This document shows, piece by piece, positions 2,225 through 63,640 of a DNA stretch of 64,000 bases (position 1 is its first letter; each line of letters opens with the position of its first letter). A model generated the notes under the pieces. The model worked only from the letters and a program-made list of their open reading frames with translations, was not told where the DNA came from and made no database searches. The DNA is from Nanobdellota archaeon (GTDB lineage Archaea; Nanobdellota; Nanobdellia; SCGC-AAA011-G17; JACPIM01). Both the position numbers and the translations under genes were made by a program. The DNA is taken from the NCBI GenBank assembly GCA_038046265.1, contig JBBSWN010000010.1, forward strand, positions 7,693 through 71,692. The letters run 5' to 3'.

Positions 2225-2713
2225 ATGATGAACAATAAAGGACAATTAATGGAGAAGCCGTTTATTTTTATATTTACAGTAGTTGTTGGAGCATTGATTT
2301 TTATTTTTGGTTTTTACTTGATAAATAATTTAATGAAGGCAGGAAACTGCAGCCAGTTAGGAATATTTGTGAATGACTTAAAAAACGAGGTTGAAAGATA
2401 CTATAATTTTGACATTGGAAGTGCTACTGAAGTAAATTTAAAATTACCAAAGAACATAAAGAATGTTTGCTTTTACACCAGAGATGATTATTTAAACAGA
2501 GCTGAATTTGACAAGATTGACAAGGGATTGTTTGATGCTGTGAATAATTTAGACTATAATGTGATATTTCTGCCTTTGAATACTTGCACAAAGGGATTTT
2601 TTAAGGTAATTAATTTTAAACCCAAGGAAAATCCCACTTGTGTTGTAAATAAAGGAAAGGTGAAATTAAATTTAGAAAACAAGGGAGAATATGTAGAGCT
2701 TTCTAAGAATTAG
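2225..2713 (+). CDS. type IV pilin-like protein (archaeal class III signal peptide)
   Basis: N-terminus MMNNKG|QLMEKPFIFIFTVVVGALIFIFGF: a short basic leader ending in KG followed by a ~22-aa hydrophobic segment. Confidence 0.45.
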   Translation: MMNNKGQLMEKPFIFIFTVVVGALIFIFGFYLINNLMKAGNCSQLGIFVNDLKNEVERYYNFDIGSATEVNLKLPKNIKNVCFYTRDDYLNRAEFDKIDKGLFDAVNNLDYNVIFLPLNTCTKGFFKVINFKPKENPTCVVNKGKVKLNLENKGEYVELSKN

Positions 2714-3872
2714 TTTTTAAATGCTTGTCTAGGAACTGGTAAGCTTGCTCGTGATATTCTAGAGGAAATTCATGAGCTTTGTTTGGAATAAGGCCAATTT
2801 TTAAATTTTCTTCTTTTTCCAAAGTCTTGTAAAGATCTGTAATTGGCTTAAATATTTGTTTTTCAATAAAATCTTTGGGAAAGATAGGATCATTTTCTGT
2901 ATAGATTATCATCAAAGGCCTGGGGGAAATTAAAGCCAAGACAGCATCACCATTAGTGTATTTTGCAATTCCAGGAAGAATTGAGAGCCAGGTTTGAGTG
3001 CCTCCGAAAGTTGGCGGTTCTCTAAAGTTCTCAACAGAGCTGGACAAGACAACAGCTTTTATTCTTTCATCTATTGCTGCCAAGTACATGCATCTTACAC
3101 CGCCGTATGAATGACCAATGCAGCCAATGTTGTTTTTGTCTATTTCTGGAAAAGAATTAAGTAAAAAATCCAATGCACGAATGTCCTCATTAATTGTTAT
3201 TCCAATTGGAGAATATCCTAATTCAAATAAGTCTTGCGCAGCTCTATTTTCTCTTACTTCATGAGAGTCATTTATAATGTCCTGCCTCATGCCAAAAGTA
3301 GAAGTGTCCATTGCAAAAACAAAATACCCTCTTTCAGCCAATTCTTTACCGTAAAACATGGTTTCATCTCCAATGTTTCCAATTGCTTCTGCTGAGCCAT
3401 ATTTTGTGTCGCCACGCTGATGCATTGCTATTATTAATGGGGCTGGGAATTTAATGTCTTTAGGTGCTAAAAAATAAACAAGGGTGCCGGAAGAATTTGT
3501 AGTTGCAATTGTCATTTTATTTTCTGAATATTTTCCTTTATCTATAGGTGCTTCATAATTAATGACCATTTTATTTACTGAAATTGGAATTAATGGGGAG
3601 GATAACAAAGATGAGAGCTCTTTTCCAAAGCTTTTGTCGAATTTTTCCTTCTGCTTCCTGGTTTTTATTTCAGAAACATCATACAAGGGCTTGTTTTTTT
3701 CAGCATCCCTGTTTACAGCTGAAAAGGAATTTACGGCAAAAGAAGATAAATATGCTTCTGGATTTTTTATTTCTTCTTTTGGAAGATTTTTGTAAACAAA
3801 TAAAATTAGGAATAAAAGAAGTATAGAAATGTAAAGAATCCTAAATTTATTTTCCTTAAGGTTGAACATCAT
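2703..3872 (-). CDS. membrane-anchored alpha/beta hydrolase (S9/DLH/PAF-AH-like; GHSYGG nucleophile elbow), tandem copy A
   Basis: N-terminal TM anchor; nucleophile elbow CIGHSYGG; Asp in IIYTENDPIF and His in NKAHEFP complete the triad. Nearly identical to the next gene. Confidence 0.7.
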   Translation of the reverse strand: MMFNLKENKFRILYISILLLFLILFVYKNLPKEEIKNPEAYLSSFAVNSFSAVNRDAEKNKPLYDVSEIKTRKQKEKFDKSFGKELSSLLSSPLIPISVNKMVINYEAPIDKGKYSENKMTIATTNSSGTLVYFLAPKDIKFPAPLIIAMHQRGDTKYGSAEAIGNIGDETMFYGKELAERGYFVFAMDTSTFGMRQDIINDSHEVRENRAAQDLFELGYSPIGITINEDIRALDFLLNSFPEIDKNNIGCIGHSYGGVRCMYLAAIDERIKAVVLSSSVENFREPPTFGGTQTWLSILPGIAKYTNGDAVLALISPRPLMIIYTENDPIFPKDFIEKQIFKPITDLYKTLEKEENLKIGLIPNKAHEFPLEYHEQAYQFLDKHLKTNS

Positions 3873-5041
3873 TCTTGTTTTTGCTTTAAATGCTTGTCTA
3901 GGAACTGGTAAGCTTGCTCGTGATATTCTAGAGGAAATTCATGAGCTTTGTTTGGAATAAGGCCAATTTTTAAATTTTCTTCTTTTTCCAAAGTCTTGTA
4001 AAGATCTGTAATTGGCTTAAATATTTGTTTTTCAATAAAATCTTTGGGAAAGATAGGATCATTTTCTGTATAGATTATCATCAAAGGCCTGGGGGAAATT
4101 AAAGCCAAGACAGCATCACCATTAGTGTATTTTGCAATTCCAGGAAGAATTGAGAGCCAGGTTTGAGTGCCTCCGAAAGTTGGCGGTTCTCTAAAGTTCT
4201 CAACAGAGCTGGACAAGACAACAGCTTTTATTCTTTCATCTATTGCTGCCAAGTACATGCATCTTACACCGCCGTATGAATGACCAATGCAGCCAATGTT
4301 GTTTTTGTCTATTTCTGGAAAAGAATTAAGTAAAAAATCCAATGCACGAATGTCCTCATTAATTGTTATTCCAATTGGAGAATATCCTAATTCAAATAAG
4401 TCTTGCGCAGCTCTATTTTCTCTTACTTCATGAGAGTCATTTATAATGTCCTGCCTCATGCCAAAAGTAGAAGTGTCCATTGCAAAAACAAAATACCCTC
4501 TTTCAGCCAATTCTTTACCGTAAAACATGGTTTCATCTCCAATGTTTCCAATTGCTTCTGCTGAGCCATATTTTGTGTCGCCACGCTGATGCATTGCTAT
4601 TATTAATGGGGCTGGGAATTTAATGTCTTTAGGTGCTAAAAAATAAACAAGGGTGCCGGAAGAATTTGTAGTTGCAATTGTCATTTTATTTTCTGAATAT
4701 TTTCCTTTATCTATAGGTGCTTCATAATTAATGACCATTTTATTTACTGAAATTGGAATTAATGGGGAGGATAACAAAGATGAGAGCTCTTTTCCAAAGC
4801 TTTTGTCGAATTTTTCCTTCTGCTTCCTGGTTTTTATTTCAGATATGTCATATAAGGGTTTGTTTTTTTCAGCTTCTTTACTTACAGCAGTAAAGGAGTT
4901 TACATCAATTAAATATATATGTGCTTCTGGATTTTTTATTTCTTCTTTTGGGAGATTTTTGTAAACAAATAAAATTAGGAATAAAAGAAGTATAGAAATG
5001 TAAAATATCTTGAATTTACGTTCTTTAAGGTTGAACATCAA
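3869..5041 (-). CDS. membrane-anchored alpha/beta hydrolase, tandem copy B
   Basis: Protein identical to copy A across the catalytic core; differs only at the N-terminal anchor region and the last 4-5 residues. Confidence 0.7.
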   Translation of the reverse strand: MMFNLKERKFKIFYISILLLFLILFVYKNLPKEEIKNPEAHIYLIDVNSFTAVSKEAEKNKPLYDISEIKTRKQKEKFDKSFGKELSSLLSSPLIPISVNKMVINYEAPIDKGKYSENKMTIATTNSSGTLVYFLAPKDIKFPAPLIIAMHQRGDTKYGSAEAIGNIGDETMFYGKELAERGYFVFAMDTSTFGMRQDIINDSHEVRENRAAQDLFELGYSPIGITINEDIRALDFLLNSFPEIDKNNIGCIGHSYGGVRCMYLAAIDERIKAVVLSSSVENFREPPTFGGTQTWLSILPGIAKYTNGDAVLALISPRPLMIIYTENDPIFPKDFIEKQIFKPITDLYKTLEKEENLKIGLIPNKAHEFPLEYHEQAYQFLDKHLKQKQE

Positions 5042-5088: not shown

Positions 5089-5958
5089 ATGAATAAAAAA
5101 GGGATGGAAATTACTTTTAATTGGATTTTTGTTATAATTGCTGGGAGTGTTTTATTGATGTTTTTCCTGTTTTTTGCGTGGAAACAGATAGGATTGTTTA
5201 ACAAATTAGGGATTAATGAGGTAGTTTCAAAATTGAACAATGAAATAGATTCTTTTGCTATAGGGGTTTCACTGAACAAGGTTGTTGAACTGCCTAAAGG
5301 TGTTGATATTAGTTTTAAATGCGGGGAGGTTGTTTTTAAAGGGGCAAAAAAAGACACCTTACATTTAATTTATGCTGAAGGGGATTTTAGAGAGAGATTT
5401 AATTTATGGACAAATGCATGGGTATTTCCTTTTAAAGTTGACAATTTATACTATACTACAAATTCTAATGGGAAGATGTTTATTATTGGAAATGAGAATT
5501 TTTTCTTTAATATACCTAATAAATTTCCAAAATCTAATAATTTAAACCAGGAAGTTGGAAAAAACGATGTTATAGTTGATTTTACAAATTCTAATTTACA
5601 AAGAAATTATAGAGAAAATAAGGTATTAGTAATAGACAGCTCAAGAAATATGATAACTTTTTTTCCTGAGAACAAAAAAGAGGAGTTTTATGGGGAGGAA
5701 ATGATTTATGGGGGTATATTTTCTAGTTATACAGAGTATTCCTGCCTAAGGAAAAAGGCTTTAGAAAGACTAAATGTAATTTCCGAGCTATATAAAAAGA
5801 AGGCTGGATTGCTTAAATTAAATTCAAAATGCAACTTTTTGTATAGTGAAATGGAAAAGACATTAGAGCTTTTTAAGAGAGAGCCATTAAAGTTTAAGAA
5901 TGTGTTAATTGAGCAGAATGACAATTTAAAAAGGAGCGGGTGTGCAAGTGTCTTTTAA
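5089..5958 (+). CDS. type IV pilin-like protein (class III signal peptide)
   Basis: MNKKG|MEITFNWIFVIIAGSVLLMFFLFF; a TATA-like tttatattat lies ~25 nt upstream. Confidence 0.45.
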   Translation: MNKKGMEITFNWIFVIIAGSVLLMFFLFFAWKQIGLFNKLGINEVVSKLNNEIDSFAIGVSLNKVVELPKGVDISFKCGEVVFKGAKKDTLHLIYAEGDFRERFNLWTNAWVFPFKVDNLYYTTNSNGKMFIIGNENFFFNIPNKFPKSNNLNQEVGKNDVIVDFTNSNLQRNYRENKVLVIDSSRNMITFFPENKKEEFYGEEMIYGGIFSSYTEYSCLRKKALERLNVISELYKKKAGLLKLNSKCNFLYSEMEKTLELFKREPLKFKNVLIEQNDNLKRSGCASVF

Positions 5959-6526
5959 AACCTTTTTAGGAAAAAGCTTTACCAAAAAGAAGAACAAAGG
6001 TTCTTATCAACTCCTGGGGAGGAGGGGGCAGGCTGAATTGTCAGAGACTCTGCTTGTTTTGCTAATTGTTGTGTTTTTAATTATAGCAGGGATATTTGTT
6101 TATTATTTGTTTTTTTACAGGAGTTTAGGGAGTATAGGGAGTGAGAAGACTGATTTTGAGAACTTGATATTATTATATACCTTAGGTCAGTCTCCTGAAT
6201 TAAAATGCGAGAATGAGGATTGTGTTGATGTTGTAAAGCTGTTTGCTTTTAAGGAATTAGTTAAAGAGAATAAAGGTTATTATGTTGAGAGGTTTGGGAA
6301 AAGAAGGATAATTATAGAGAGTGTTTACCCGAAATTAAATGAAAATATGCAAAAAACAGAGTGCATATTAGAAAAGTACCAACAAAGCAGTTTTCCGAAT
6401 AATTGTGGGTACATTATAGTTTATGATAATTTACAAAACAACAAAGGAGCATTAAGCGTAAGCCTGCCTGTTTCACTAAACTATGGAAATGAGTATAGAA
6501 TAGGGATGTTACGGGTGCAAGTATGA
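5942..6526 (+). CDS. pilin-like or N-terminally anchored protein (start uncertain; alternative TTG at 6038)
   Basis: ...RRG|QAELSETLLVLLIVVFLIIAG matches a class III signal. The called N-terminus, however, translates the dispersed intergenic motif at 5958-5988, and GGAGGAGGGGG precedes an in-frame TTG at 6038. Confidence 0.4.
   Translation: MQVSFKTFLGKSFTKKKNKGSYQLLGRRGQAELSETLLVLLIVVFLIIAGIFVYYLFFYRSLGSIGSEKTDFENLILLYTLGQSPELKCENEDCVDVVKLFAFKELVKENKGYYVERFGKRRIIIESVYPKLNENMQKTECILEKYQQSSFPNNCGYIIVYDNLQNNKGALSVSLPVSLNYGNEYRIGMLRVQV
5958..5988 (+). promoter_or_regulatory. dispersed motif copy (AACCTTTTTAGGAAAAAGCTTTACCAAAAAG)
   Basis: Member of the motif family described in findings. Confidence 0.35.
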
Positions 6527-6999
6527 GAAGCCTTTTTGAAAAAAAGCCTTTAGGGAAAAATTTTGATAAACTGGGGCAGGCTGAAATGATTGGGCTGGCT
6601 ATACTAGTGGTTATTCTTGTTGTAATTTTAGTTATTGCCTTAAATTTTAATTTTAAACCAAATGATGACAAAGCTGATTTAAGAAAAAACTTAATCGCCA
6701 ATAATCTGCTGAATGCCTTAATCAAGCAGCAAGGAAAGGTAAATATAAAGGAGTTAATTGATGAGTGCTATAGCGAGAAGAGAAGAAATGTCAATAATGG
6801 ACAAAATTGCTTGAAATTGGAAAATGAATTAAATAATGTTTTTTTAGCTGTTTTGGTTAATAGAGATTATAAGGTAAATTTAAGGGCAAATGAAGATTCT
6901 TTTTTTTCAGGAGGAAGTTGCAATAGAGGTATAACAAGCACTCTTTATAGATTTAAAGAAAAAGGAACTTTATTTACAGCTAATTTAACCATTTGCTAA
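6523..6999 (+). CDS. pilin-like or N-terminally anchored protein (start uncertain; alternative ATG at 6586)
   Basis: ...KLG|QAEMIGLAILVVILVVILV; the called N-terminus again overlaps a motif copy (6531-6560). The stretch GGGGCAGGCTGAA(A/T)TG is shared with the previous gene. Confidence 0.4.
   Translation: MRSLFEKKPLGKNFDKLGQAEMIGLAILVVILVVILVIALNFNFKPNDDKADLRKNLIANNLLNALIKQQGKVNIKELIDECYSEKRRNVNNGQNCLKLENELNNVFLAVLVNRDYKVNLRANEDSFFSGGSCNRGITSTLYRFKEKGTLFTANLTIC
6531..6560 (+). promoter_or_regulatory. dispersed motif copy (variant CCTTTTTGAAAAAAAGCCTTTAGGGAAAAA)
   Basis: Motif family, read by eye. Confidence 0.3.
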
Positions 7000-10830: not shown

Positions 10831-10885
10831 GTTTATAAAATACAGAAAGTTTATTTTTATAATGCCGCGATCGCATAACCTGGTA

Positions 10886-11002
10886 TAAGCTTTTAGAAAA
10901 AGCTTAAGCAAAAACTAAAGCAAAACTAAGAGTTTACAGAATTGCACTGGCCTTGAGATAAGCTTTTAAAAAAGCTTAAGCAAAAAATTAAGCAAAAAAA
11001 AC
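10886..11002 (+). repeat. two tandem ~73-bp units (TAAGCTTTTARAAAAGCTTAAGCAAAAA-TAAAGCAAAA...), degenerate copies of the dispersed motif
   Basis: Direct comparison of 10886-10930 with 10959-11002. Confidence 0.5.
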
Positions 11003-11084
11003 AAGATAGCCAGGCCTCACAAGGGCATCCCGGTTCAAAATAAGGATTGCATCCTTATCAACCCGCAAACTTAAATGAAAGTCC

Positions 11085-11126
11085 GGGTCGCGGCGTAATA
11101 TATTTACAGATAAGTTGTGGCGTAAG
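11085..11126 (+). repeat. GC-rich repeat pair R1 GGGTCGCGGCGTAATAT (11085-11101) and R2 TTGTGGCGTAA (11116-11126), upstream of the TA pair
   Basis: Exact copies recur at 11920-11936 and 11891-11901 downstream of the TA pair in mirrored order; the core GGCGTAAT occurs four times. Confidence 0.5.
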
Positions 11127-11196: not shown

Positions 11197-11469
11197 TTGG
11201 AGGAAAAAATGGAAAATGTTGAAGTTACAAGCATAAGCTCACGAGGGCAGGTAGTTATACCACAATCAGTAAGAGAAAAGTTAAAGCTTCATGAAGGAGA
11301 AAAGTTTATAGTTATAGGAGAAGAAGATACTATAGTTTTAAAGAAACTGGAAATGCCTTCATTTAAGGGCTTTGATAAACTACTTAAAAAAACAAGGGAA
11401 TTTGCTAAAAATAAAGGAATTAAGCCTGAAGATGTAAGCGAGGCTGTAAAAAGAGCAAGATCTAAATGA
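11197..11469 (+). CDS. AbrB/SpoVT/MazE-type antitoxin
   Basis: SSRGQVVIPQSVREKLKLHEGEKFIV swapped-hairpin motif; 4-nt overlap with the downstream PIN gene. Confidence 0.6.
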   Translation: MEEKMENVEVTSISSRGQVVIPQSVREKLKLHEGEKFIVIGEEDTIVLKKLEMPSFKGFDKLLKKTREFAKNKGIKPEDVSEAVKRARSK

Positions 11470-11876
11470 TTAAAGTAGTTGTTGACACTAATGTGTTTAT
11501 ATCTGGTATATTTTGGGAAGGAAACTTTTGTTCGCAAATAATAGACTTATGGGGACTTGGGGAAATTACTATTGTCAGTTCATTGGATATAATTGAGGAA
11601 TTAGTAAAAACATTAAGAGATTTTAAAGTTGAAATGCCAGATGACATGATTGAAGAATGGCAAAATAAAATCATTGAAAATGCTGTAATTGTAGAACCTA
11701 AAGAAAGGCTTGATGTTGTCAAGGGTGACTCTAAAGACAATAAATTCTTTGAAGCTGCTTTAGCTGGGAAAGCGGAATATATTGTAAGTCAGGATAAAAA
11801 ACATATTTTAAGCATTAAAGAATACAAAGGAATAAAAACTATCTCGCCTGAAGATTTTTTAGAACTTATCAAATAA
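11466..11876 (+). CDS. PIN-domain (VapC-like) toxin
   Basis: N-terminal VVVDTNVFISG motif typical of PIN domains; acidic residues downstream; translationally coupled to the antitoxin. Confidence 0.6.
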   Translation: MIKVVVDTNVFISGIFWEGNFCSQIIDLWGLGEITIVSSLDIIEELVKTLRDFKVEMPDDMIEEWQNKIIENAVIVEPKERLDVVKGDSKDNKFFEAALAGKAEYIVSQDKKHILSIKEYKGIKTISPEDFLELIK

Positions 11877-16432: not shown

Positions 16433-16470
16433 AAAATTCTTTTTAGATTATTATTTATAAACCTTTTTGA

Positions 16471-16502
16471 ACCCTTTTTAGAAAAAGCGTTAACGGAAAA
16501 AA
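16471..16502 (+). promoter_or_regulatory. dispersed motif copy (ACCCTTTTTAGAAAAAGCGTTAACGGAAAAAA)
   Basis: Motif family; a partial copy lies 10 bp upstream. Confidence 0.35.
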
Positions 16503-20073: not shown

Positions 20074-20189
20074 GGCGGTCGTAGTATACTGGCTTATTAC
20101 AGCTGGCTGTGGCCCGGCTAAAGGGAGTTCGATAAAATCTTTTTGGGAAAAAGCTTTACCAAAAAATTACGAAAATCTCCCCGATCGCC
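20074..20189 (+). tRNA. tRNA-His (GUG) with encoded G-1, C73 and a ~42-nt intron in the T-loop
   Basis: Hand fold: G-1 at 20074; acceptor GCGGTCG/CGATCGC (one G-U pair); D-arm with A14, G18-G19, A21; anticodon stem GCTGG/CCGGC; loop CUGUGGC (U33, GUG, G37); T-stem GGGAG/CTCCC; exons TTCGA+AT rebuild a TTCGAAT T-loop after removing 20133-20174; discriminator C. No CCA encoded. Confidence 0.5.
20139..20166 (+). promoter_or_regulatory. dispersed motif copy inside the tRNA-His intron (CTTTTTGGGAAAAAGCTTTACCAAAAAA)
   Basis: Motif family. Confidence 0.35.
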
Positions 20190-20203
20190 CTAAGCTTTTC
20201 TTA

Positions 20204-20235
20204 AACCTTTTTAGGAAAAAGCTTTACCAAAAAAG
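20204..20235 (+). promoter_or_regulatory. dispersed motif copy upstream of hisS
   Basis: AACCTTTTTAGGAAAAAGCTTTACCAAAAAAG. Confidence 0.35.
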
Positions 20236-31254: not shown

Positions 31255-31518
31255 ATGTAGGCTAGGCAGCAGGCTAGTCCTCTGCGATTTCCAAACGGAC
31301 TTCATGGGAAGCTGAAAGCCCAGATAAGAACAAATTAGGTTAATAGTCTTGGTTTGTACGATGAGGCTTTGTCCTAGTGTGTTATTTTATATGAGAACCA
31401 GGTCAGGATGGGAACATAGCAGCCTTAATCATTTAAAGTAAAGTCATTAGGGGTTCAGAGCTAAGGAAGGATCAAGGTAGCTATTAATTTATTTTTTTCT
31501 GAACTGGGAAGCCTACTT
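31255..31518 (+). ncRNA. signal recognition particle RNA (7S/SRP RNA)
   Basis: GC-rich island in an AT-rich spacer; helix-8 signature ACCAGGUCAGGAUG-GGAA-CAUAGCAGCC (compare E. coli 4.5S CCAGGUCAGGUCC-GGAA-GGAAGCAGCC); 5' GUAGGCU pairs with 3' AGCCUAC; ends approximate. Confidence 0.55.
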
Positions 31519-32721: not shown

Positions 32722-32940
32722 AATGTTATTTATAAATCTTTCTAATTTTAACTACTTAAGAGTAATATAAAAATGAAAGAATTTCAAAAATATCGGAAAG
32801 ATTACGTAAAAATTAAACTTGCTTATTTTTCATTATAAGGCTTATAAACGTCTTTAAATGCATTTAAAGCGGGGAAAAGTATTTAAACTTTGGAACTTTT
32901 TTTTGAATAGAAATTACTAAATTTTGACTAATCTTTTATA

Positions 32941-32960
32941 AAAAGCTTAACCAAAAGGCT
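32941..32960 (+). promoter_or_regulatory. partial dispersed-motif copy (AAAAAGCTTAACCAAAAGG) just upstream of gyrB
   Basis: Matches the right half of the motif. Confidence 0.25.
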
Positions 32961-32962
32961 GA

Positions 32963-36444
<3,482 letters not shown>

Positions 36445-36445
<1 letters not shown>

Positions 36446-36492
36446 AAAGCTTTTTAGAAAAAAGCTTTAGCAAAAAACGAAGCAAAAAAACG
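36445..36492 (+). promoter_or_regulatory. dispersed motif copy (AAAAGCTTTTTAGAAAAAAGCTTTAGCAAAAAACGAAGCAAAAAAACG)
   Basis: Motif family, between gyrB and the next ORF. Confidence 0.3.
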
Positions 36493-42903: not shown

Positions 42904-42967
42904 AACCCTTTTAAGAAAAGCGTTCACGGAAAAAGAACCCTTTTAAGAAAAAGCTTCACCAAAAATG
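42904..42967 (+). promoter_or_regulatory. two tandem dispersed-motif copies (AACCCTTTTAAGAAAAGCGTTCACGGAAAAAG / AACCCTTTTAAGAAAAAGCTTCACCAAAAATG)
   Basis: Motif family; lies in the divergent region between aIF2-gamma and the four-gene operon. Confidence 0.4.
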
Positions 42968-43024
42968 AGTTTGATTTTTTTTGAATAATAAGGTTTAAAA
43001 AGAAAGATTTTAAAGAAAATACTC

Positions 43025-51285: not shown

Positions 51286-51633
51286 TTACACTAAATTTAC
51301 AAATTCTTTCTTTATTTCTTCAAAAGTTACTGTGTTTATTTTTCCTATACTTTTTCTAACGATGCTTTTGTCCAAAGTAAAAAGTTTGTCCACTTTTACC
51401 CTGCTTGTAACCGGAATCTGGCCTTTTGATAGATTTTTGTTTTCTAATATAACTGAGTTTTCTGAATCTTTTAAGTTTGAGGTAATCCCACAAGTTATTA
51501 TATCTTCTGTCCGGCTATTATATTCCTTTTTAGATAAGACGACAACTGGTCTTTGTTTTATAGAGCTTAAATCGGAAAATGGAAAAGGAACTATTAATAT
51601 TTCCCCCCGTTCATATATTGTTCCAAATGTCAT
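51286..51633 (-). CDS. mazF: MazF/PemK-family toxin
   Basis: RGEILIVPFPFSD....KQRPVVVLS....CGITSN pattern. Confidence 0.65.
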   Translation of the reverse strand: MTFGTIYERGEILIVPFPFSDLSSIKQRPVVVLSKKEYNSRTEDIITCGITSNLKDSENSVILENKNLSKGQIPVTSRVKVDKLFTLDKSIVRKSIGKINTVTFEEIKKEFVNLV

Positions 51634-51844
51634 CTTCTTTGTTGCTCCATAATTTTTCAGCTACTTTTTCAGAATGCTTTAATAAATCCCTAAAATCAGA
51701 TTCCTTAACTTTTTCCAATAAAATTACTCTTCCTTTTTTTATTAAAACTAGTTCATCTCCCTTTTTTATGCCTGCTGACTCCCGAAAACTAACAGGCAAG
51801 GAGATTTGTCCTTTATCTGAAACTTTTACTATTTTTGTTTCCAT
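51611..51844 (-). CDS. mazE: MazE/AbrB-type antitoxin
   Basis: KVSDKGQISLPVSFRESAGIKKGDEL swapped hairpin; overlaps the toxin gene by 23 nt. Confidence 0.6.
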   Translation of the reverse strand: METKIVKVSDKGQISLPVSFRESAGIKKGDELVLIKKGRVILLEKVKESDFRDLLKHSEKVAEKLWSNKEDDIWNNI

Positions 51845-51889
51845 AAGTATGTAAGAATTTCCTTACTTATATATTTTTTGATTATATAA

Positions 51890-62819: not shown

Positions 62820-62852
62820 AACCCTTTTCACAAAAGCGTTAACGGAAAACGC
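62820..62852 (+). promoter_or_regulatory. dispersed motif copy in the 35-bp L1-P0 spacer (AACCCTTTTCACAAAAGCGTTAACGGAAAACGC)
   Basis: Motif family; contains the hairpin AGCGTT-aacggaa-AACGCT. Confidence 0.35.
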
Positions 62853-63577: not shown

Positions 63578-63595
63578 TTTTAAGGCCCTCCTACG

Positions 63596-63640
63596 AACCT
63601 TTTGGGAAAAAGCTTCACCAAAAATGCTTTACGGAAACCC
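63596..63640 (+). promoter_or_regulatory. dispersed motif copy (AACCTTTTGGGAAAAAGCTTCACCAAAAATGCTTTACGGAAACCCG)
   Basis: Motif family. Confidence 0.35.

Follow-up and report, generated by a model that had tools for sequence, protein, structure and literature searches.

In bacteria, repetitive extragenic palindromic (REP) elements and bacterial interspersed mosaic elements (BIMEs) are mobilised by REP-associated tyrosine transposases, and IS200/IS605 elements of archaea and bacteria insert with the active strand on the lagging-strand template. The REP families are defined by a GTAG or CGTC tetranucleotide at one end (PMC3733652), and single-strand origins of the ssoA type carry conserved RSB (TTATGCCGAGAAAATTT) and CS-6 (TAGCGT) boxes (PMC4598088). 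Here, a dispersed repeat of about 30 nt was analysed in a 64,000-nt stretch of a Nanobdellota archaeon genome (assembly GCA_038046265.1, contig JBBSWN010000010.1, positions 7,693 to 71,692 of the forward strand), referred to below as the window. An earlier note on the window had described the repeat as an intergenic motif of one orientation and had offered three options for it, a transcription-factor operator, an untranslated region (UTR) element or a miniature selfish repeat. Judged by placement, strand lock and turnover among relatives, the last of these options fits best, and the motif is tentatively read as a REP-like, non-autonomous hairpin element that would be inserted or kept while DNA is single-stranded at the replication fork, with occasional co-option.

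The window has a GC content of 31% and the gene content of a small DPANN archaeon (ribosomal proteins, gyrase, aminoacyl-tRNA synthetases, toxin-antitoxin pairs), and its sequence matches were contigs from Hainich groundwater metagenomes (0.1 µm fraction). Together with 8.1 kb to the left (L378) and 8.8 kb to the right (L244) from the same genome, it forms a segment of 80.9 kb (about 81 kb). A profile built from 13 copies gave 13 matches in the window, all on the + strand (E = 4e-8 to 5e-4; next best E = 0.04), so that every copy listed previously was recovered in the orientation claimed for it, and the − strand matches of the profile were only mirror readings of the same + strand hairpins. 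The copy formerly taken as partial (32941-32960) proved to be a full one starting at 32929. The exact pattern CTTTTN{2,5}AAAAGCTTHAVCAAAA matched nine times in the window, always on the + strand, and 0.00 times in 100 dinucleotide-preserving shuffles. A structural search of the 80.9 kb (T-run/A-run hairpin with 5-bp arms, followed by an A-run tail) found 15 + copies and no independent − copy, compared with 0.02 per strand in shuffles. With the copy at 42936 and the nested and composite copies past the window end, which the strict search missed, about 19 copies in 17 loci are present in the 81 kb, all in one orientation and all in non-coding DNA, at a density of about one per 4 kb. The family is therefore real and highly non-random. 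Rfam scans at gathering and permissive thresholds matched no family to the window copies or to those of 35 motif-bearing loci, and literature searches by motif string and by topic found no description of the module; the family is apparently undescribed so far.

The unit reads x-AA[G/C]C(C)-T4-6, a loop of 1-3 nt, A4-7-GC(G)TT-y, and then a tail of A-N-C/G and A4-8, with (T)TAA at the 5′ side and A-N-C-AAAA at the 3′ side. The AAAGCTTT palindrome and the phased A-tracts pointed out earlier are present, but they are merely pieces of the hairpin arms. Five sub-families differ by compensatory changes in these arms: A (5′ arm AAGC, 3′ arm GCTT, fully paired, tail AGC or ACC), B (AACC with GCTT, leaving a conserved C·C mismatch, tail ACC), C (AACCC with GCGTT, an extra C:G pair, tail ACGG), D (AAGCC with GCCTT, an extra G:C pair, tail AGGG) and E (AAAC with GTTT, fully paired, tail ATC). 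Co-variation was measured by position-anchored counts, not by a covariance model, on 346 distinct copies collected with patterns that fixed only the T-run, the 3′ arm and the tail and left the 5′ arm free; a MAFFT alignment of 21 copies misregistered the variable run lengths. In the low-GC loci of this set, the two 5′-arm positions facing TT were A and A in 89%, and the closing pair x:y was T:A in 65, A:T in 34, G:C in 10 and C:G in 3 (chi-square p = 4e-14), whereas in high-GC loci it was G:C in 95. The hairpin is thus maintained by compensatory change. In sub-family B, an alternative pairing of the T-run and GG with CC and the tail A-run competes with the main hairpin. Two further structural candidates were rejected. 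A tRNA-like minihelix with an ACCA end is not general, since the ACC tail of many copies is replaced by AGC, ATC, ACGG or AGGG elsewhere, and a triple-helix tail, as in the poly(A)-clamping elements of some long RNAs, has base rules that fit only some sub-families.

Coding in the window is balanced between the strands, with 35 + genes covering 29.1 kb and 37 − genes covering 29.2 kb. Of the motif loci in the 81 kb, about six lie between two + genes, three in divergent spacers and at least five between two − genes, the rest being inside or next to tRNAs, and this split matches the amount of intergenic DNA in each class. Several short spacers are made up of the motif alone, the L1-P0 spacer being one of them. 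The earlier observation that most copies lie upstream of + genes is accordingly true but not meaningful, because placement follows the amount of intergenic DNA. The antisense loci comprise the two already recognised between minus-strand genes, at 16470 and in the L1-P0 spacer, and, just past the window end, copies in the L30-L15, L34e-prefoldin and ATP-cone spacers, some of them inside a ribosomal-protein operon. Since orientation is independent of the genes, with at least five antisense loci, roles as promoter, 5′ UTR or operator are excluded, and the data argue against any function that requires one transcript orientation.

The orientation follows the chromosome strand instead. At four-fold sites in the window, the GC skew was +0.36 on + genes and −0.39 on − genes, and the strand component was +0.37 in the window and +0.34 in the 81 kb. 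A positive strand component places the motif, read as hairpin and then tail, on the G-rich strand. The same agreement between motif strand and G-rich strand was observed in contigs L138, L155, L177 and L156 and in the syntenic relatives L374 to L376. Only multi-copy contigs are informative in this comparison, the other low-GC loci being too noisy owing to single copies, chance matches and tRNA-bound copies. The G-rich strand is usually interpreted as the lagging-strand template, which stays single-stranded longest. The four-fold-site asymmetry is also unusually high for an archaeon, and no switch occurs within the 81 kb.

The syntenic ribosomal-protein region was compared with that of four relatives (P0 identity 78, 75, 71 and 57%). 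The three closer relatives carry 3-5 copies each, all oriented as in the window genome, while the most distant one, L377, has none in 21 kb, its genes abutting or overlapping at sites where the closer relatives have spacers made of the motif alone. Between L34e and prefoldin, each of the four close genomes has a copy, of sub-family C in two and of sub-family B in the other two. In the L1-P0 spacer, the copy is of sub-family C in the window genome, of sub-family E in two relatives and degenerate in one, and the L30-L15 spacer holds a composite in the window genome, a single copy in L375 and none in L374. Where filled and empty sites could be compared (L375 against L374 at L30-L15, and the window tRNAs against those of L207 and L377), no target-site duplication or terminal repeats were found. 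Such gain, loss and replacement suit an insertion element, possibly with conversion between copies, better than a fixed regulatory site, although co-option is also compatible with the persistence seen at some sites. At the start codons of P0, prefoldin and L15, the arm taken in the reverse sense is AAAAGGGTT or AAAAAGGTT, located 3-5 nt upstream and resembling the GAGGT-type ribosome-binding boxes of this genome, and the reverse complement of the copy at 62820..62850 puts AAAAGGGTTAA immediately before the P0 start codon.

The observations that carry the REP-like reading are the co-varying hairpin, the strand lock, the placement in harmless niches including hairpin loops, and the turnover among relatives. 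For the mechanism, the G-rich strand would be left single-stranded as the lagging-strand template, and the element would be inserted, copied or corrected at that stage, when its hairpin is able to form. Insertion or copying at the fork is suggested by analogy, the precedents being IS200/IS605 elements with their miniature derivatives, and REP sequences. Copies already in place may then sometimes be co-opted: one ahead of a start codon, taken in the reverse sense, can offer a ribosome-binding-like box (AAGGGTT or AAGGTT), one in an intron can form the inner helix of a tRNA splice motif, and one behind a stop codon can contribute T-runs.

Several points weigh against this explanation, the main one being that no enzyme was found. 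No Y1 transposase or OrfB occurs among the Pfam-marked genes of the window, 3 Mb of motif-bearing loci contained no IS200-type TnpA signature, and no REP-associated tyrosine transposase was found in the 81 kb or in those 3 Mb. No target-site duplication, terminal inverted repeat or cleavage tetranucleotide was recognised at the copies. The skew serves only as a proxy for replication direction, and two contigs depart from the rule, the motif strand being mixed relative to the G-rich strand in L150 and opposite to it in L139. That four related genomes carry copies in the same spacer with unchanged orientation is equally compatible with selection for a function. Hairpin stability is low (−2 to −8 kcal/mol as DNA; z +0.4 to −3.3; 10 of 13 weaker than −2), and because the folding energies are small, the case for structure is co-variation and not stability. 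Finally, the tail varies together with the stem sub-family, a co-variation for which the reading has no explanation. A piggyBac-like target duplication of TTAA was considered separately and fails where the closing pair is A:T or G:C. The copies and associated features of the window are listed in Table 1.

Table 1. Motif copies, intron-bearing tRNAs and the second repeat type in the window
Feature	Coordinates	Strand	Remarks
Copy, sub-family B (AACC..GCTT..ACC)	5958..5988	+	Begins on the stop codon of the upstream + gene; second repeat type follows
Second repeat type, hairpin AAGAAC-N4-GTTCTT with tail ATCAACTCC	5989..6015	+	Related unit at 11041-11066 in tRNA-Ser intron 3
Copy, sub-family D (AAGCC..GCCTT..AGGG)	6528..6560	+	2 nt past the stop codon of the upstream open reading frame
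tRNA-Ser(UGA), unannotated, three introns	10864..11095	+	Introns in the D-loop (10886-10940), at position 37/38 (10958-11007) and in the T-loop (11040-11081)
Copy, sub-family A (TAAGC..GCTTA..AGC)	10886..10915	+	5′ end of tRNA-Ser intron 1
Copy, sub-family A	10959..10989	+	5′ end of tRNA-Ser intron 2 (position 37/38)
Copy, sub-family C (AACCC..GCGTT..ACGG)	16470..16501	+	Antisense to both − strand neighbours; adjoins the TATA box of gene 16432
tRNA-His(GTG)	20074..20190	+	T-loop insert of ~42 nt, about 20133-20174
Copy in tRNA-His T-loop intron	20135..20166	+	Alternative hairpin TTTTTGG / CCAAAAA is the inner helix of the splice motif
Copy, sub-family B	20203..20235	+	13 nt past the tRNA-His 3′ end, 67 nt before hisS
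Copy (TAATC..GCTTA..ACC)	32929..32958	+	Divergent spacer; ends 10 nt before the gyrB start
Copy, sub-family A	36446..36477	+	Starts at the gyrB stop codon; extra tail-like unit CGAAGCAAAAAAA after it
Copy, sub-family C	42904..42935	+	First of a head-to-tail pair; divergent spacer
Copy (AACCC..GCTTC..ACC)	42936..42966	+	Second of the head-to-tail pair
Copy, sub-family C	62820..62850	+	Fills the whole 34-nt L1-P0 spacer; antisense to the operon
Copy, sub-family B	63595..63625	+	Spacer upstream of L1 (− strand)

An unlikely alternative is a functional RNA hairpin in transcripts. It would be a terminator or 3′-end signal working through its T-runs, would serve between cistrons to stabilise the transcript or mark a processing site, or would act in translation by hiding or presenting a ribosome-binding box. 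In its favour, four genomes share the position and orientation of the copies at L34e-prefoldin and L1-P0, compensatory changes having preserved the hairpin, and the reverse-read arm puts AAGGGTT or AAGGTT at ribosome-binding distance (3-5 nt) from the start codon. Copies often start on or beside a stop codon, and T4-T7 runs are present on both strands. Outside the archaea, large families were found in Komagataeibacter, Novacetimonas and Acetobacter (GAAGCTTTTTGAAAAAAGCTTCACCAAAAAC), where spacers of convergent (+−) type held 31 copies, ++ spacers 21, −− spacers 14 and −+ spacers 4; the corresponding counts in low-GC viral contigs were 12, 5, 2 and 1, and orientation was mixed in both. This convergent or downstream enrichment suggests a 3′-end hairpin role in those acetic-acid bacteria and viral contigs. 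An RNA element would, however, be expected to follow transcription, and in the archaeal segment orientation follows the chromosome strand, with sense, antisense and divergent loci in the numbers given above. Long T-runs would also terminate the L30-L15-SecY operon, no Rfam family matches the motif, and the closing pair shows G·T exceptions as often as A·C ones, which favours neither strand as RNA.

Less probable still is a host or replicon signal that is active only in single-stranded DNA and in one orientation, and that would serve the lagging-strand template at the replication fork, perhaps in priming, restart or fork handling. The strict tie between orientation and the G-rich strand over 81 kb and several other contigs is consistent with such a signal, and single-strand origins are themselves orientation-specific hairpin elements (PMC4595007). 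Clostridium perfringens plasmids of 3-4 kb also carry the module in their non-coding region, where sub-families A and E swap by compensatory change within otherwise conserved flanks, and on a contig encoding a Mob_Pre relaxase it lies at about 50 nt from a pMV158-like transfer origin. However, the RSB and CS-6 boxes of ssoA are absent from the copies and from the plasmid module, the plasmid region has no annotated function, many sites are empty in relatives, which is odd for an essential signal given the 21 kb of L377 with 0 copies, and L139 shows the opposite orientation. As separate observations on these small Firmicutes plasmids (L164 4085-4125 and 4148-4230; L380 2500-2600), a conserved, structured non-coding block consisting of GGGCTTTGCCCTCACT..CACCCA, the motif and ATATGTCT..ACGG lies beside the pMV158-like transfer origin, and a small protein encoded by one such plasmid weakly matches the PriA 3′ DNA-binding domain.

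Four window copies lie inside or directly after tRNA genes, three of them in introns and one after tRNA-His, and the earlier emphasis on the tRNA-intron copy and on the uniform orientation as unusual was well placed. Neither ARAGORN nor Rfam called any tRNA across the 64 kb, though at least two (tRNA-Ser and tRNA-His) are present. When the inserts were removed in silico, ARAGORN called both, which confirms the T-loop insert of tRNA-His, noted before as an intron, and shows that the stretch at 10886-11002, previously taken for two degenerate tandem units, belongs to two introns of the unannotated tRNA-Ser(UGA). Intron 3 of this tRNA-Ser holds a different hairpin-plus-tail unit, the second repeat type of Table 1. 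The syntenic tRNA-Ser ortholog in L207 has only the 37/38 intron, introns 1 and 3 being absent, and the tRNA-His ortholog of L377 has a 14-nt T-loop mini-intron at the same place, without the 3′ arm and tail. The central helices, CTTG:CAAG in tRNA-Ser and TTCG:CGAA in tRNA-His, use locus-specific bases outside the motif. The motif therefore supplies only the inner hairpin, and not the bulges and central helix of a bulge-helix-bulge splice motif. A further candidate, in which a promoter within the intron would drive split or adjacent tRNA halves, was discarded, as the predicted start would fall past the 3′ exon.

These data bear on a further alternative, in which a tRNA intron would be mobile through RNA, in the manner proposed for intron transposition in Thermoproteales, and would leave the intergenic copies as by-products. 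The idea draws on the tRNA-bound window copies, on the differing intron number of orthologous tRNA-Ser genes, and on a pattern scan of genome collections, in which metagenome-assembled genomes (MAGs) of Woese-, Pace-, Aenigmat- and Altiarchaeota held many copies directly after tRNAs or in D-loop, anticodon and T-loop introns, the intron copies in DPANN contigs always being in sense to the tRNA. It is nevertheless improbable: the exon-pairing part of each intron is locus-specific and no part of the motif, a splice motif is lacking in the intergenic copies, antisense copies cannot derive from reverse splicing into those transcripts, and in tRNA-His the motif looks added to a pre-existing mini-intron.

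A promoter variant or the transcription-factor operator of a regulon is the least credible explanation, and very improbable, since AT-rich sequence with TATA-like boxes (TTTTTAGG / TTTTATAA), nine window copies preceding + genes and a copy at 32929 at promoter distance from gyrB are outweighed by the lack of any − copy for the 37 − strand genes, by copies antisense within operons, inside tRNA introns and nested in the second repeat, by canonical aaNN-TTTATAAATA boxes (at the signal recognition particle (SRP) RNA and many genes) that adjoin the motif but never lie within it, and by the occurrence of all four Watson-Crick closing pairs, which indicates nucleic-acid pairing and not protein read-out. 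The operator and UTR options of the earlier note are unsupported on the same grounds, while its statement that the motif is not a canonical B recognition element/TATA promoter, normal TATA boxes existing elsewhere, agrees with the aaNN-TTTATAAATA form in which the window promoters read. A core-promoter reading was checked by start-codon distances and by comparison with the TATA boxes of the genome, and was ruled out by orientation. Downstream of the second copy of the head-to-tail pair, a promoter-like canonical box (aaggTTTAAAAA) is found at 42989-43000, before gene 43025.

The second repeat type has its own relation to the motif, as a sub-family C copy is nested in the loop of a second repeat (AAGAAC..GTTCTT-ATCAACTCC) just outside the window, and this composite occurs twice. 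The second repeat was also observed at L244 740-860 and 8090-8220; all its copies are on the same strand, in spacers and in one tRNA intron. Its tail ATCAACTCC resembles the 16S rRNA 3′ end, and at 6001-6030 it is followed by GGGGAGGAGGGGG, where it could mask a ribosome-binding site.

Among the neighbouring genes, the GyrB gene (32969-36445, 1158 aa) is marked in the Pfam records as containing an intein that bears an endonuclease domain of LAGLIDADG type, and the gyrase genes are notable for an archaeon. The SRP RNA at 31257-31516 matched the bacterial large SRP model with 74.6 bits, a lower-scoring overlapping match of the same clan being left out, and a canonical TTTATAAATA box lies about 30 nt upstream of it. 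Toxin-antitoxin pairs were found at 11209-11876 (MazE-type antitoxin and PIN toxin), directly downstream of the intron-rich tRNA-Ser, and at 51286-51854 (MazE and PemK). Tandem paralogous alpha/beta-hydrolase genes (2703-3872 and 3869-5041, offset 1169 nt) are represented by a single copy in L243, an assembly of the same population, which points to a collapsed repeat or to copy-number variation.

Beyond the relatives, a pattern scan of metagenomes again yielded many tRNA-intron copies, together with head-to-tail arrays with periods of 28, 35 and 39 nt. A scan of viral collections gave 114 stretches, compared with 13 for a permuted-tail control, many of them on MAG contigs labelled as giant virus, and a further large bacterial family was found in Rikenellaceae, likewise of mixed orientation and concentrated in convergent and downstream spacers. 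On contigs with the giant-virus label (L157 7081-7380; L129, L174 and L222), unbroken head-to-tail spacer arrays of 8-10 units with periods of 28-39 nt were observed, one of them directly upstream of a GIY-YIG-like open reading frame. In Thermococcus MAGs (L079 4900-5820, L065 300-1100), single copies lie in long non-coding stretches beside tRNA genes, which could be remnants of integrated elements.

The DPANN, giant-virus, plasmid and bacterial occurrences may share descent or only a mechanism. In a bolder and rather doubtful extension, one 30-nt module, an A/T-run hairpin with an ACCAAAA-type tail, would be common to DPANN archaea, giant viruses, Firmicutes plasmids, acetic-acid bacteria and Bacteroidales; in nanoarchaea it would be coupled to the fork and strand-locked without a dedicated transposase, would seek hairpin loops and short spacers and would build or enlarge tRNA introns, with the co-variation of tail and stem forming part of its recognition or copying. 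A cross-domain module of this kind would suggest horizontal spread or a very general, undescribed single-strand or hairpin mechanism. If the REP-like reading holds, an archaeal dispersed repeat oriented by replication-type strand and not by genes would offer a marker of replication direction for fragmentary DPANN genomes. A spacer-filling element that also sits in introns and enlarges them would likewise be a source of tRNA introns and of tRNAs hidden from standard tools, and masking the motif would let annotation pipelines gain tRNAs in such genomes.

Compared with known systems, the motif differs from miniature inverted-repeat transposable elements, whose terminal inverted repeats and target-site duplications were not seen for it. 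It resembles 3′-end hairpins, namely intrinsic terminators and those of the mimivirus 'hairpin rule', in being an AT-rich palindrome found downstream of genes, with convergent enrichment in giant-virus contigs and acetic-acid bacteria, but its hairpin is followed by an A-run where a terminator has a U-run, and the orientation of the archaeal copies ignores transcription. Single-strand origins and single-strand initiation sites are likewise orientation-specific and active as folded single-stranded DNA, and the module occurs in small Firmicutes plasmids beside a transfer origin; those elements, however, span 150-300 nt with several hairpins and their own boxes and number one or two per replicon, whereas the motif is dispersed at about every 4 kb. 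With the non-canonical tRNA introns of archaea it shares similar sequences at different positions of different tRNAs and gain and loss between relatives, in a host lineage known for broad-specificity splicing, but most of its copies are intergenic, the exon-pairing part lies outside it, and its orientation is set by the chromosome strand.

The IS200/IS605 elements and their miniature palindrome-associated derivatives, which occur in both archaea and bacteria, depend on hairpins and move through single-stranded DNA, and their orientation is tied to replication direction, to which the uniform G-rich-strand orientation of the motif may correspond. They have distinct left and right hairpins, cleavage and target tetranucleotides and a length of at least 100 nt, whereas the motif is a single 30-nt hairpin with a tail; neither a second end nor distinct left and right subterminal hairpins were found in the unit, and no TnpA or TnpB lies nearby. 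REP elements and BIMEs resemble it, as they are short (20-40 nt), imperfect, extragenic palindromes in many copies, with a hairpin containing a conserved mismatch and a short conserved single-stranded end, their copy number varies between relatives, and they are thought to be handled as single-stranded hairpins. The differences are that no associated transposase gene was found in the 81 kb or in the 3 Mb of motif-bearing loci, a uniform orientation where REP sequences form alternating pairs, AT-rich stems where those of REP are GC-rich, an archaeal host, and copies in tRNA introns. No GTAG or CGTC tag was found in the motif copies, and because this defining tag is absent the motif lies outside the REP families defined by it. 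It is nevertheless tentatively classed with the REP-like kind of hairpin repeat, within which its strict strand lock, its tRNA-intron niche and its cross-domain spread are unusual.

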